Assembly: GCA_021513715.1 (NCBI GenBank)
Contig: CP084167.1
Coordinates: 1,920,001-1,984,000 of the forward strand
Source: Candidatus Heimdallarchaeum endolithica
GTDB lineage: Archaea; Asgardarchaeota; Heimdallarchaeia; Heimdallarchaeales; Heimdallarchaeaceae
Direction of reading: 5' to 3'
DNA: 64,000 bases
The notes beneath the pieces were generated by a model. The model ran no database searches. It was given only the letters and a program-made list of their open reading frames with translations, and was not told the origin of the DNA. The position numbers and the translations under genes are program-made. Of the stretch, positions 1-28,463 are shown piece after piece (within the stretch, counting starts at the first letter, position 1; every line of letters starts with the position of its first letter).

Positions 1-128
1 GAGAAAATGCATTCACAAAAACAGACGAAAAGTTGTTTTTTATCATAGCAGAACTAATAAGCTTCGCAAAAACAATAATGGATTTAAAAGAAAAAATTAA
101 AAAGAATGGAAATGAAGAAAAAGTTTAA
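1..128 (+). CDS. 3' end of a gene entering from the left (..ENAFTKTDEKLFFIIAELISFAKTIMDLKEKIKKNGNEEKV*), product unknown
   Basis: Open frame from nt 3 to TAA 126-128; not in ORF track because it lacks a start. Confidence 0.5.
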   Translation, partial: ENAFTKTDEKLFFIIAELISFAKTIMDLKEKIKKNGNEEKV

Positions 129-212
129 AAAGAAAGCAAATAAGGAAAAAGTGAATAGGCCGAGAAAAACGAAAAAACAAATTTGTTAGCTAGACGGCCT
201 AAAGAGCAATAG

Positions 213-326
213 GGGCTAGTGGCGCAGATGGTTAGCGCGTACGGCTGATAAAAAATAAACCAGAATTGGTTTAAACGCCGTTTAGAAACCGTAAGGTCGC
301 CAGTTCAAATCTGGTCTAGCCCACCA
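213..326 (+). tRNA. tRNA-Ile(GAT) with 37-nt intron (251-287) at 37/38; CCA encoded
   Basis: Acceptor GGGCTAG/CTAGCCC, D stem GCGC/GCGC, anticodon stem TACGG/CCGTA with CT-GAT-A, T loop TTCAAAT, BHB helix CTGA/TTAG with 3-nt bulges, ACCA end. Confidence 0.95.
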
Positions 327-431
327 ATATTTAACTATAAAAAATAATTTCTAACAACTTTTTTTAGCAAACTTATTGATAGAATGAGCTATTTTTTTGG
401 TTTCGTTCCTTCATTTATTCAATTCATTTGA

Positions 432-812
432 CTATTCATTTTCATTTGAATAAGGAGGGTTGAGATGTAATATTCCCTCGAGGTTGATCACGCTAACTAT
501 CACTCTTGCGCTTATAGAATCGGTTAGTCTGTAACTTTCATCATCGAAGAAAAACTTCCTTATTTGATTTTTAATTATTGTTCCAATATTTTTTAGTCCG
601 AACAAGCTTAGACGCAGTTTTTCTCCTCCTAGTTCTAGTATCCCTTCCCACGCTCTAATCATGTAATAATGCATCATTGTTTTCATTAATTCTACTTTAC
701 TCATTGTAGCTATTTTGTCTATCTCTATTTGTGCTCTTACGTCATCATATAGTATTCTAAATACTTCTTCTTCTGTTGTTAATTCTTTTGTTCTTGGGCT
801 TGGTATCGTTTT
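432..812 (-). pseudogene. Hypothetical ORF (track 432..704) whose frame stays open to 812; possibly 5'-disrupted by a (TTTTA)4 tract
   Basis: 36 extra sense codons (KTIPSPRTKELTTEEEVFRILYDDVRAQIEIDKIAT) upstream of the ATG; in-frame TAA at 813-815 lies inside the repeat. Confidence 0.35.
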
Positions 813-834
813 TTATTTTATTTTATTTTATTTA
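811..834 (+). repeat. (TTTTA)4 microsatellite
   Basis: ttttattttattttattttattta read directly. Confidence 0.8.
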
Positions 835-975
835 GAATATTGTTTTGCTTTTTTCTTTTCCTGTTCTTCTTTTTTCTATTTTTTTCATTTGTTTAAATAG
901 TCAAAACTTTTGATTATTTTATAATTACTAGTAATTAGTTAACTTCTTAATATAACGGTAATAATGTGAATGTAA

Positions 976-25868: not shown

Positions 25869-26112
25869 CTCATAAATTTAAATGAAAGAACACACTACAC
25901 TTACCATCAGAGTTACTAGGTTTTTAACTTTTTCGAGAGAAGATTTTTAAATGAAAAAAAGAAGTTCAGAACTTTTTGCCTATAGAGATTAGAAATAGTA
26001 AAAAAAATAAATGAGGAAAGGATGATTAGATAAAAATCCCTAAACCAAAAATATAAAAAAGAGAGAAAAAAGAAAGTTTTGATAATATTCAAACTGTAAT
26101 ACAAACCGAGAT

Positions 26113-26188
26113 GGGCCAGTGGTCTAGTGGCTATGACATCTCCCTTACGCGGAGAGGATCGCAGGTTCAATTCCTGCTTGGCCCACCA
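26113..26188 (+). tRNA. tRNA-Val(TAC), CCA encoded
   Basis: Acceptor GGGCCAG/TTGGCCC, anticodon stem TCTCC/GGAGA with loop CTTACGC, GCAGG-TTCAATT-CCTGC. Confidence 0.95.
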
Positions 26189-26266
26189 CATCTAAACAAA
26201 TAAAATCTTTCTTGTTAGTTGAATATTCATTCAGTAAAAATATTTTTAGGAGAGTGGAAGATTTTT

Positions 26267-27052
26267 TCACTTTCCTTTATCCCATAGATATTCAAAATTA
26301 TTTGTGAACAGTTCTATTATTCCAGGATTCGACGAGAAGTGTGGTCTATAGATGTATTTTTCACCTGTTTTTGGTGACACCCATATTACAAAAACCACTT
26401 GATCCTCATCTACTATTGTTCCTCTTACTAGCACGCTTTCTTTTTCTATGAATTTTACTTTTGCACCTATTCTTCTTAATTGTTCTGCTATTGTCTTTGC
26501 TTTTTCATCAGCTACTGTCATAATTACTCTAACTTTTACCCCTTTTGTTGTTACTTGTTCTAATTCTTCCTTTATTTTATCAAACCAATAAAATACATTA
26601 GTAAATATTCTTATATCTTTTTTTGCATTTTTTATTATTTCAATTGTTTTTAATTCCATTTCCTCTAATGATGAGTATCCTTCTAATAGTTCTTCTGGAT
26701 TAATTTTTATTTGTCCTAAAAATGAGGTTATTTCATACACTCTGTTCTTTAAATTTTCCCACTCAGAGTTTATTTCTTGTTCCTTTTTTTCTAAAAATCT
26801 TGTGAATCCTTCCATTGGTGGTAGTACTCTAAATCTTTTTGGTCTTCCAGAAATTATTTTCACTAGTCCTAGTTTTGACAGGTTTTCAATTGTATCATAA
26901 ATCCTCGGTGTAGGGATTTTAGTTTTTTGATGTATTTGTTCTGCTGTTAATTCTGCTTCTGAATTGTCCATTAATGCCATATACGTTTTTATTTCATATT
27001 CAGTTAACCCCACCGATTTTAGCTTTTGTTTTAGCTTATCTTGGTTATCCAT
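26267..27052 (-). CDS. TrmB-family transcriptional regulator
   Basis: GLTEYEIKTY..L, IPTPRIYD.IENL..LGLV..GRPKRF; C-terminal effector domain. Confidence 0.9.
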   Translation of the reverse strand: MDNQDKLKQKLKSVGLTEYEIKTYMALMDNSEAELTAEQIHQKTKIPTPRIYDTIENLSKLGLVKIISGRPKRFRVLPPMEGFTRFLEKKEQEINSEWENLKNRVYEITSFLGQIKINPEELLEGYSSLEEMELKTIEIIKNAKKDIRIFTNVFYWFDKIKEELEQVTTKGVKVRVIMTVADEKAKTIAEQLRRIGAKVKFIEKESVLVRGTIVDEDQVVFVIWVSPKTGEKYIYRPHFSSNPGIIELFTNNFEYLWDKGK

Positions 27053-27143
27053 AATTCAAAGATTATTTTTTTCTTAAAAAACTTATCTTAAAATTCTATT
27101 TTACGCAGTTAATCAAAGTAATCGTTATTATAATCTTTATTTT

Positions 27144-27923
27144 TTATTGGTTAGTTGAAAGCAGTTGCTTTAGTCTCCTCGGTGATTGTGCAGCTATTTT
27201 CGCTTCACTCAACAAATAACCTATCTCAGGAATTATTCCGTCTGCCCTTGTGTTTTTTTTACATATTAATCTATGTTCAAGGAATCCTATTCTTTCAATT
27301 ATTTCAATATCTTGACTGTGGTTTGTTTTTTTCAGTGCATCTTTGATCATTTTAGTTGTTGCTCCTGTAATTATTAGTGCTTCATTTTCCTCTTCAAATG
27401 GTTTTAGTAACCAGTCTAATGATTCTTTTGTTAGTTTTACTCTCAATTTTCTTCCAATTACTCGTTTTTCTGTCACTTCAAAGATTAACGGCAGATTTTC
27501 TATAAAACCGAAACTGTGAACTATTTTTTTTAATGATATTTTTCTATTTTTTACTAACTGCTTTCTTATTTCATATAGAGGATAAAGTGCATCTATTCTT
27601 TCTTCGCTTATATATACACCCATATCTATGAACAGACCGAAGTTTACACTTTCTGTTTTTCTTATTCTTCCAAAGTAACTTTTATTTTCTATAATTTCAC
27701 TTATATTATATTCCGCGCCATATTGATTATGAATAAAGTTTGCTACAATTTCTTCATCTTCTCCTTCAACATGTATTTCAGCTAAGTTTTCTTCTGAAAA
27801 ACTAATTTTTTTTATTTGAACATCTAGCTCATTAAATTCATTTTTAAGTATAAATTCTATTGATTTTTTTAGATTCTCCTCTGGTACATTATACAATTTA
27901 ATGAGTGTGCGTATCTTTTTCAT
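27144..27923 (-). CDS. DUF2110-family archaeal protein
   Basis: VEGEDEE.VAN, FGLFIDMG, IERIGFLEH..ICK.NT.ADGIIP.IG. Confidence 0.75.
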   Translation of the reverse strand: MKKIRTLIKLYNVPEENLKKSIEFILKNEFNELDVQIKKISFSEENLAEIHVEGEDEEIVANFIHNQYGAEYNISEIIENKSYFGRIRKTESVNFGLFIDMGVYISEERIDALYPLYEIRKQLVKNRKISLKKIVHSFGFIENLPLIFEVTEKRVIGRKLRVKLTKESLDWLLKPFEEENEALIITGATTKMIKDALKKTNHSQDIEIIERIGFLEHRLICKKNTRADGIIPEIGYLLSEAKIAAQSPRRLKQLLSTNQ

Positions 27924-28463
27924 TCACTCTTTTCTCCTTTTTTCAATCACTTTCTTTCCTTTTTTACATGGTTCTATCTCGACTCTTGCATCAGAATACC
28001 GTCTTTTTCTTCCTTTTCCATTTGTTATTTTGTCCAAGCATATTGCCAATGCGGCAACTTCTGAATGAGGTTGGTGTCCTATAGCAATGTTAAAGTCTGC
28101 TAAGTGATAGAACTCTATTTCTACCTTTGCTCCTCCAACAATAACTAGTATATCCTTATCCACTTTTCTTATTTCGTCTACTACGTCATCTATTTCTATT
28201 CCAAACATTGTTAAGTGAACAACTATTCCTCCATCTTTTTTCCATTGTTTAACAAATTGTCTTTCATTTTGTGTATACTCTACACCAAAGTTTCCGCCCC
28301 AACTCTCGACTATTTGAGTAACTGTTTGTTCAATTCTATTATCATACTCTCCACTATAAACTAGTTTTTGAGCTCCAAAGGCCCGAGCCACTAGAGCTAA
28401 ATGACTTGACATACGTTTATCTCGTGTTATTCTATGATGTAATCTTAAGACGACTATCTCCAT
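27924..28463 (-). CDS. trm56: tRNA (cytidine56-2'-O)-methyltransferase
   Basis: VLRL.HR..RDKR, HLTMFG, VGGAKV, QPHSEVAALA. Confidence 0.93.
   Translation of the reverse strand: MEIVVLRLHHRITRDKRMSSHLALVARAFGAQKLVYSGEYDNRIEQTVTQIVESWGGNFGVEYTQNERQFVKQWKKDGGIVVHLTMFGIEIDDVVDEIRKVDKDILVIVGGAKVEIEFYHLADFNIAIGHQPHSEVAALAICLDKITNGKGRKRRYSDARVEIEPCKKGKKVIEKRRKE

Follow-up and report, generated by a model that had tools for sequence, protein, structure and literature searches.

The window analysed here is a 64,000-nt stretch of the genome of Ca. Heimdallarchaeum endolithica, a deep-sea Asgard archaeon, in which strand composition flips at several tRNA genes (Table 1); both intron-bearing tRNA genes, tRNA-Ile(GAT) and tRNA-Leu(TAA), were confirmed as real. 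The A-rich flank to the left of tRNA-Ile extends ~4.5 kb leftward beyond the window and spans a GAF gene and valS. The 90-aa ORF of the cassette to its right lies on the minus strand at ~427-699 and was without match in a Pfam search. This cassette is missing at the tRNA-Ile of H. aukensis, and a 78% identical copy adjoins tRNA-Tyr there.

Table 1. Features of the window that bear on the skew. Flip is the left-minus-right difference in skew; counts are four-fold degenerate sites.
Feature	Position	Strand	Remarks
A-rich left flank of tRNA-Ile, end	1..212		left skew +0.75
tRNA-Ile(GAT), with intron	213..326	+	strongest centre of the genome, flip 1.65
~530-bp cassette right of tRNA-Ile	335..863		carries 90-aa ORF
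hef	976..3423	+	reads away from tRNA-Ile centre
pyrH	3448..4131	-	tail of tRNA-Ile skew; coding strand 47A/21T
tRNA-Pro(CGG)	7085..7161	+	weak centre, flip 0.47, yet a strain-divergence peak
tfe	7348..7935	+	weakly T-rich right flank of tRNA-Pro, 12A/34T (p 0.005)
pus10	23825..25141	+	reads toward centre; 88A/21T (p 2e-12)
tRNA-Leu(TAA), with intron	25301..25421	+	left half of paired centre
tRNA-Val(TAC)	26113..26188	+	right half of paired centre
trmB-like regulator, DUF2110 gene, aTrm56	26267..28463	-	toward centre

The initial annotation described the + strand as A-rich to the left and T-rich to the right of tRNA-Ile and of the tRNA-Leu/Val pair, whatever the gene orientation, and its three hand counts (11A/31T, 37A/6T and 11A/34T) were exact. 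The description was borne out when four-fold sites were scored on the coding strand against a genome background of ~48% A: hef as a whole gave 38A/236T (p 2e-32), with 1A/65T, 3A/49T, 5A/52T, 13A/36T and 13A/27T in successive 450-nt bins, pus10 was A-rich, and the trmB-like, DUF2110 and aTrm56 genes gave 57A/12T (p 3e-9), 44A/17T and 33A/17T, falling with distance. The T-rich side of tRNA-Val had been considered partly expected from the minus-strand gene there, which it is not because coding strands in this genome are not A-rich at silent sites. The reach, first put at 1-2 kb, proved longer, with a half-distance of 2.0 kb and a return to background by ~6 kb, such that pyrH is still skewed. At tRNA-Pro, the weaker skew that had been suggested for both flanks held for tfe but not for glmM, which is unskewed (69A/88T, p 0.38). 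Position within the gene, the alternative by which the tRNA-side effect was to be refuted, left skew flat (-0.005 to -0.095 only), as did the orientation of neighbouring genes, and amino-acid composition is excluded as a cause by the use of four-fold sites.

The mirror skew is confirmed as real and genome-wide in Ca. Heimdallarchaeum endolithica. Averaged over all tRNAs, the flip was 0.53 versus 0.04 +/- 0.03 for 274 other intergenic gaps, and relative to these gaps the tRNA mean was equalled in none of 100,000 resamples. What had been reported as an A/T skew does contain an A/T shift, but it is not confined to A and T: at silent sites of the outward-reading strand A and G are down and T and C are up, regardless of gene or tRNA orientation, giving a purine-to-pyrimidine axis on which T goes with C and A with G. 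T versus A shifts outward by 1.3-1.5 log-odds, two-fold sites show an outward A>G shift of +0.55 to +0.6 log-odds, C versus T is nearly unbiased and GC content is almost unaltered. A search for a sequence motif or context preference found none, and our literature searches found no description of the mirror-skew pattern. The pattern is common to H. aukensis, for which part of the genome was compared; there the orthologous tRNA-Ile(GAT) centre has L+0.69 and R-0.83, and the sharp centres within secY, ileS, actin and hypD are also present. Skew is weak in sister genera despite the same tRNAs, these relatives being fragmented assemblies; a single genus, moreover, amounts to a single event.

More than 30 centres were found in the genome, each fading within 6 kb. 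The process had been supposed to be symmetric, to decay with distance and to start at tRNA genes. The symmetry, the decay and the anchoring at a point are supported, but the tRNA is not the defining feature of the centres: the flip is strong at 29% of tRNAs, and equal flips occur at 16S and 23S (rRNA ends), at CRISPR arrays (L+0.80, R-0.80 at the large array, with no skew in the spacers themselves) and, sharply, in the middle of secY, ileS, actin, hypD, EF-2 and oppC. Generic rearrangement breakpoints were rejected as centres, there being no skew at them, and synteny breaks predicted flip strength weakly (p 0.077).

One explanation for this distribution is that R-loops arise at genes that are transcribed heavily and not translated (tRNA, rRNA, CRISPR) and there stall forks or prime replication, which would expose the outward strand, with mobile elements just using the same sites. 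Its strand geometry is identical to that of the damage reading we favour below, the strongest centres are 16S, 23S, the large CRISPR array and the tRNAs for common codons, and flip strength tracks codon demand (rho 0.39, p 0.009), tRNAs with C34 anticodons being weak (median flip 0.13 vs 0.58, p 0.03). We nevertheless judge it unlikely given the sharp mid-gene flips, the absence of a flip at tRNA-Asp, Ser-GGA, Leu-GAG, elongator Met, the putative RNase P RNA and ribosomal protein operons, the lack of any effect of tRNA orientation (skew is the same on both sides and does not follow the direction of transcription) and the weak skew of sister genera.

That the centres might simply be origins or termini of replication is hardly credible, even though the mirror symmetry, polarity and independence of gene direction resemble origin-flanking skew and the surroundings of the origin are where tRNA and rRNA genes cluster. 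The global GC-skew switch (~2.1-2.2 Mb) matches orc1 at 2150139, and orc1 loci, which lie 200 kb from the centres of the window, have flat flanks with no local flip, on which ground origins were rejected. Unlike origin-flanking skew, moreover, the mirror skew is local (6 kb), occurs at many sites and has the opposite G/C sign to the replichores of this genome, the global leading strand being G-rich and the local outward strand C-rich.

Many centres carry traces of mobile elements. Those at 16S, tRNA-Asn and tRNA-Phe correspond to the published aloposons and HeimV2/HeimM2, which move between tRNA sites (Wu et al. 2022, PMC8813620); the passages of that paper on these elements do not mention skew (the word occurs 0 times) and report no insertion enzyme. 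Aloposon parts or target duplications were found at these three sites, at tRNA-Gly, Pro-GGG, Pro-TGG/Leu-TAG and Lys, and 265 bp from the centre at 2972934. When elements, remnants or target duplications in any strain were counted, the sites were 16S, 23S, secY, Asn, Phe, Gly, Pro, Leu-TAG, Lys, Ile-GAT and Tyr. In the two Heimdallarchaeum genomes no element trace was found at tRNA-Ile(CAT), Leu-TAA/Val-TAC, ileS, hypD or EF-2. The secY centre is the exact start of a 616-bp duplicate (84% identity) beside remnants of the aloposon giant gene, with too few changes in the duplicate arm to orient them, and in another strain the aloposon nuclease gene abuts the 23S 3' end, a centre that is empty in this genome. 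The terminal aloposon gene (PF12705, E 2e-9) encodes a predicted PD-(D/E)XK (Cas4/AddB-like) nuclease; the five aloposon genes scanned included nuclease, HTH and ParA genes and no integrase. The integrase search covered tyrosine integrases (PF00589), and its one match in the whole genome is far away, at 29.7 kb. The nuclease is present in both Heimdallarchaeum genomes, and a search of 23 others from the family, where skew is weak, found it in none; nor was it found in the viral contigs searched. Relative to the published account, the secY and 23S targets, the terminal nuclease and the duplicated target arms of up to ~600 bp are new, and actin is probably an aloposon target too.

Comparison of strains revealed recombination tracts at centres, where the ancestry of flanking DNA differs from that of the backbone. 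Strain divergence is ~5% at tRNA-Ile and 0% at 8-10 kb, and the ratio of polymorphism to fixed differences is 0.50 at 0-2 kb, 0.30 at 2-4 kb and 0.14 at >4 kb from centres. Among variants, of which 40 of 331 were visible in mapped reads, there were 13 T>A and 3 A>T within 2 kb of centres (hand binomial p 0.02) and 20 and 9 within 4 kb (p 0.06); per-site rates within 2 kb were equal (0.0076 and 0.0082). A/T differences between species near centres numbered 163, versus 280 expected under neutrality and 458 under steady added mutation. Steady extra A>T mutation was rejected on this deficit and the T>A excess.

The variant counts and A/T differences also count in favour of strand-polar biased gene conversion at the hot spots, in which heteroduplexes of fixed polarity on each side of a break would let T alleles on the outward strand win without extra mutation, since the equal rates look like symmetric mutation. 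EndoMS/NucS cuts T/T, G/T, G/G and T/C mismatches and hardly A/A, A/C or C/C (PMC4838380); it is present here, and the outward A>G shift fits as well. We consider biased conversion rather unlikely, however. Although NucS acts best on G/T, there is next to no bias between C and T, whereas T versus A shows the large shift given above, and NucS also occurs in genera with weak skew; genus-specific repair genes were rejected as a cause, NucS and Y-family polymerase being family-wide. In addition, the actin tract exceeds the background supply of mutations, its 120 sites including 14 A/C and 8 G/T differences that run one way, against only 6 transitions. Actin has 2 differences before its centre and 92 after, with 2 amino-acid changes; third positions changed by T>A 19, C>A 20, G>A 11 and T>G 10 times, versus 5 changes away from A, and these clustered, strand-coordinated changes start at the centre (z 5.9, one case only). 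This one gene, with the direction of change deduced, appears to record transversions that came in a directional burst.

The T>A excess would likewise result from selection, either on termination through outward transcripts rich in U or on a polar DNA signal guiding a translocase or chromatin toward the centre, as would the lower synonymous divergence near centres (0.166 vs 0.283). It is highly improbable in view of the reduction of all substitution classes there, not A/T alone, the lack of context preference, the favouring of A>G and A>C, which add no U, the flips inside single mRNAs and the distortion of proteins (Lys 5.4% in away-reading vs 12.3% in toward-reading genes).

The skew is most likely the mutational scar of repeated mobile-element insertion and repair at hot spots. 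With moderate confidence, we favour a reading in which DNA left single-stranded while recombination drives synthesis at these sites is damaged in episodes; of the processes initially put forward, recombination-primed synthesis at recurrent breaks fits best, and there is little support for selection on termination or chromatin. The centres would be fixed insertion and recombination hot spots of aloposons and other islands, broken by the element-encoded nuclease or by failed insertion. Both break ends may then restart break-induced, recombination-dependent synthesis on a homologous copy, leaving the outward-reading strand single-stranded for a few kilobases as a damaged template; simple 5'-3' resection would uncover the other strand instead. 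Base loss and deamination copied mostly as A would make this strand drift to T (A>T, G>T, C>T, some A>C and A>G), exposure falling with distance would yield the 2-kb half-distance, and damage would come in episodes while an element is active, followed by slow relaxation. In favour of this damage reading are the orientation independence and distance decay, the sharp mid-gene centres shared with H. aukensis, the element parts at many centres, the differing strain ancestry, the actin tract and the confinement of the nuclease, among the family genomes searched, to Heimdallarchaeum; against it are the several centres without element trace, the weak prediction of strength by synteny breaks, the element nuclease ends, which lack the skew expected of a centre, codon demand, which also predicts strength, and the reliance of the burst spectrum on one gene. 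More tentatively, it is possible that aloposons enter tRNA, rRNA and core protein genes by integrase-free, nuclease-triggered homologous recombination, and that the ensuing repair mutates or converts DNA around the site with strand polarity, recoding essential host genes and leaving a mark of former insertions long after the element is lost.

Like the mirror skew, GC-biased gene conversion produces a composition shift that peaks at a recombination hot spot and decays. It affects both strands alike and raises GC, whereas the mirror skew is strand-polar with GC content nearly unchanged. Break-induced replication in yeast gives mutation clusters from single-stranded DNA (PMC6765108), and under the A-rule A is inserted opposite lost bases during bypass of abasic sites (PMC4167244). 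The likeness lies in strand-coordinated mutation beside a break and in A opposite lost bases, but those are single somatic or laboratory events, whereas here repeated events seem to have been fixed at the population level and to have rewritten core genes. Also close are GRINS, in which intense skew changes abruptly over kilobase tracts, recodes genes and is linked with gene conversion, by an unknown mechanism (2021, PMC8256042). The mirror skew shares the intense recoding tracts and the tie to conversion. GRINS, however, are duplicated regions of bacterial PKS genes with mostly keto (G+T vs C+A) skew, and the mirror skew affects single-copy genes, separates purines from pyrimidines, is a mirror image about a fixed site and decays smoothly. 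No nearby duplicate of >500 bp at >80% identity was found for the hef, pus10, trmB and valS flanks, the secY 5' arm alone having one. Mean absolute GC and TA skews in 150-nt windows, both >0.15 in GRINS, were 0.26 and 0.40 for pus10 3' and 0.26 and 0.34 for trmB, versus 0.11 and 0.20 for hef 5', which like valS does not exceed this level in both; the positive correlation of G and T skews usual in GRINS was not seen here.

From sequence alone, the skew would locate hot spots of insertion and break repair in Asgard archaea that are not in culture, even where they are now empty, as confirmed at the 23S end. If aloposons do enter by nuclease-triggered recombination and provoke such repair, the skew would chart recombination-dependent DNA synthesis in these archaea generally and be a tractable model for the unexplained origin of GRINS, a question made testable by tying recombination at defined sites to intense skew nearby. 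It would also mean that, in a lineage close to eukaryotes, a non-adaptive force has been strong enough to alter the amino-acid use of core genes, and such local bias can influence trees inferred from genes such as secY, actin, EF-2 and those of synthetases.

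The initial annotation had described the forward strand as A-rich to the left and T-rich to the right of tRNA genes, whatever the gene orientation, and its hand counts of A and T proved exact on recount. At four-fold degenerate sites, where the genome background is ~48% A, there were 38 A and 236 T in hef, right of tRNA-Ile (1 A and 65 T at the gene start), 88 A and 21 T in pus10, left of tRNA-Leu(TAA)/tRNA-Val(TAC), and 57 A and 12 T on the coding strand of the minus-strand gene right of tRNA-Val. When all tRNAs were pooled, unselected, the skew was -0.38 in genes reading outward within 1.5 kb, +0.30 to +0.13 in genes reading inward and about -0.04 in genes >5 kb from a tRNA, and tRNA orientation had no effect on the flanks. 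Position within the gene, named beforehand as an explanation that might undo the pattern, gives just -0.005 to -0.095, and the mean flip (left-minus-right skew) is 0.53 at tRNAs versus 0.04 +/- 0.03 at other gaps. The proposed decay with distance is real, but it reaches beyond the 1-2 kb first suggested. At ten strong centres (points with mirror-image silent-site skew on both sides), a skew of 0.71 halved every 2.0 kb and had dropped to roughly zero 6.5 kb out, a curve whose height is inflated because the centres were picked for skew. Within 1 kb of a centre, A, T, G and C on the outward strand (reading away from the centre) stand at 0.13, 0.72, 0.02 and 0.12 versus 0.42, 0.42, 0.08 and 0.08; codons shift from AGR to CGN for Arg and from AAA to AAG for Lys, and amino-acid use changes too. 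The mirror skew is real and general in the genus Heimdallarchaeum.

The window spans bases 1920001-1984000 of its source contig (3,326,783 bp, 31% GC), which terminates in tRNA-Gly(CCC); gene calls followed a simple ORF rule, and the nearest named relative of this genome (G000) is Ca. Heimdallarchaeum aukensis PM71. Both species show the skew strongly, whereas it is weak in three sister genera, at -0.09 to -0.17 for outward genes within 1 kb, and was not seen in one genome of a different family. Most of the T-arm-intron tRNAs in the table are overlooked by an ARAGORN plus Rfam search.

Features of the window and of the whole genome (G000), with one locus on another contig (L276)
Feature	Coordinates	Strand	Remarks
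~530-bp cassette	window 335-863		90-aa ORF, no Pfam hit; directly after tRNA-Ile
A-rich ORF	window 38282-39178	+	four-fold 93 A/33 T; no RNA gene near; low-complexity Thr/Pro/Ala stretch
tRNA-Ala (3), Glu(CTC, two introns), Thr(GGT), Lys (2)	G000 1989158, 2015339, 2073011, 2168076, 2394084, 2516104, 2517289		T-arm introns; outside window
GC-rich non-coding repeat, ~85 bp	G000 798711, 1237235, 1353396, 1687497, 1840386, 1993401, 2631865		
16S, 23S, two 5S-like genes	G000 2131400-2135700, 2245465-2246950, 2471140, 2829760		16S and 23S unlinked; 5S-like genes separate
Giant genes with internal repeats	G000 66264-71363, 154642-161463, 3095278-3101766, 3137772-3142394		long T-rich silent-site coding tracts, no mirror flank
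IS families	G000 365843, 812894, 1138967, 514734		multi-copy; four-fold GC skew goes positive to negative along several
Terminal aloposon gene	L276:1-1061; G000 2241056-2241973		PD-(D/E)XK, Cas4-like nuclease by sequence

The idea that tRNA genes anchor the skew held in part: some are strong centres, but the flip exceeds 0.9 at only 29% of tRNAs. Strong and flat tRNAs agree between H. aukensis and this genome. Further centres are the 16S gene, the 23S gene and a 115-repeat CRISPR array, and sharp mid-gene centres lie in secY (residue 79), ileS, actin, hypD, EF-2 and oppC, the first four of which recur in H. aukensis, while three other genera show them weakly or not at all. Codon demand also predicts centre strength (rho 0.39), with clear exceptions. 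The orc1 gene at 2150139 coincides with the global GC-skew switch, yet its flanks are flat and show no local flip, which ruled out a replication origin as a centre there and makes it highly improbable that the centres are origins. The majority of tRNAs are clustered within ~0.4 Mb of orc1. The T-rich tracts of the repeat-bearing giant genes are possibly conversion tracts like those of GRINS, the bacterial repeat tracts with intense skew.

Many centres bear traces of aloposons, the mobile elements of Wu et al. 2022 (PMC8813620). The secY flip coincides with the start of a 616-bp sequence that duplicates the 5' portion of secY, and it is adjoined by remnants of an aloposon giant gene; remnants also occur at tRNA-Pro(GGG), Pro(TGG)/Leu(TAG), Gly and Lys and, for the centre at 2972934, at a distance of 265 bp. 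Three seemingly tRNA-free foci (2207492, 2352100 and 2437447) are the aloposon-displaced original flanks of 16S, tRNA-Asn and tRNA-Phe. The H. aukensis relative of the tRNA-Ile cassette sits at tRNA-Tyr, also a strong centre. No element traces were seen at tRNA-Ile(CAT), Leu-TAA/Val-TAC, ileS, hypD or EF-2. On a contig from a different sample, the aloposon PD-(D/E)XK nuclease lies immediately at the 23S 3' end, a site empty in this genome; the insertion-site idea might have failed this test and passed it. Aloposon targets include the 23S 3' end and secY, beyond the published tRNA sites, and probably actin. A search of 23 other genomes of the family, most of them fragmented, did not recover the aloposon nuclease. 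The genome's one tyrosine integrase lies away from aloposons. At the tRNA-Gln pair (G000 1243167-1262000), the T-rich right flank has been pushed ~15 kb outward by a CRISPR island; this flank is uninterrupted in H. aukensis.

Steady extra A>T mutation was rejected, as there were 163 between-species A/T differences within 1 kb versus 458 expected; all classes of difference near centres are at about 0.4-0.9 of neutral. Current variants comprise 13 T>A versus 3 A>T, with equal per-site rates. Together, these results imply that the skew is either kept by biased fixation or was built in episodes and is now relaxing. The pattern in actin, the sole strong outlier (z 5.9) among 112,775 aligned sites, favours episodes. 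Between species, the actin sequences differ at 2 bases ahead of the centre and at 92 beyond it, with 2 amino-acid changes. The third-position changes run in one direction (T>A 19, C>A 20, G>A 11, T>G 10, against 5 changes away from A) and intensify as the 3' end is approached. The 464 additional bases that this genome carries there include a short match to the aloposon nuclease start (72%, E 2e-5). Ordinary decay was ruled out as the cause of this tract, since C>A far exceeds C>T. Regardless of which lineage changed, the changes acquired on the T-rich strand are A>T, G>T, A>C, C>T and A>G. At third positions >4 kb from centres, the loci of the species comparison have more T>C than C>T variants (92 versus 44) and more A>G than G>A (81 versus 51), a hint of genome-wide fixation bias toward A+T or of mis-polarisation.

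In our view, episodes of break-linked mutagenesis at insertion sites have an even chance of being the cause of the skew. Most changes appear to place A on the centre-facing strand, as if copied from a damaged single-stranded template; under the A-rule, A is inserted opposite damage in the template (PMC4167244), and the template would be the outward strand, given that A is gained on the other. Synthesis started from both break ends would expose that strand (BIR, PMC6765108), whereas simple 5'-3' resection would expose the opposite one. R-loop-linked forks stalled at the centre would expose the outward strand too, and are an unlikely source. Selection is an improbable cause of the skew. Biased conversion at the same insertion sites is a less likely cause than break-linked mutagenesis: the allowed changes are the same set that EndoMS/NucS leaves uncut (PMC4838380), but the magnitudes agree poorly with EndoMS/NucS-based conversion. 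An EndoMS/NucS mismatch filter or biased conversion may nonetheless add to the skew.

Around tRNA-Ile, H. aukensis and a conspecific strain have 0% differing sites at 8-10 kb and ~5% adjacent (8% at tRNA-Pro), whereas four other vent populations show the opposite pattern against this genome (0-0.6% near, 1-5.6% farther out); both gradients show that a tract around the tRNA has an ancestry of its own. At the four-fold sites of four loci, polymorphic differences relative to fixed ones fell from 0.50 at 0-2 kb through 0.30 at 2-4 kb to 0.14 over 4 kb; the loci are few and the sites non-independent. Around tRNA-Ile(CAT) (G000 2063000-2088000), the species differ by 2-7% in most kilobases versus 8-17% near pus10, likely reflecting between-species gene flow. 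On another contig (L222:1-2534), ribosomal protein genes are inverted immediately before hef and tRNA-Ile is missing, owing either to rearrangement of this centre or to chimerism in the assembly.

We found no description of this skew pattern in the literature. GRINS are the closest known system, although by their membership test the centres here are not GRINS. The skew of Heimdallarchaeum is best grouped with break- and conversion-linked skew.
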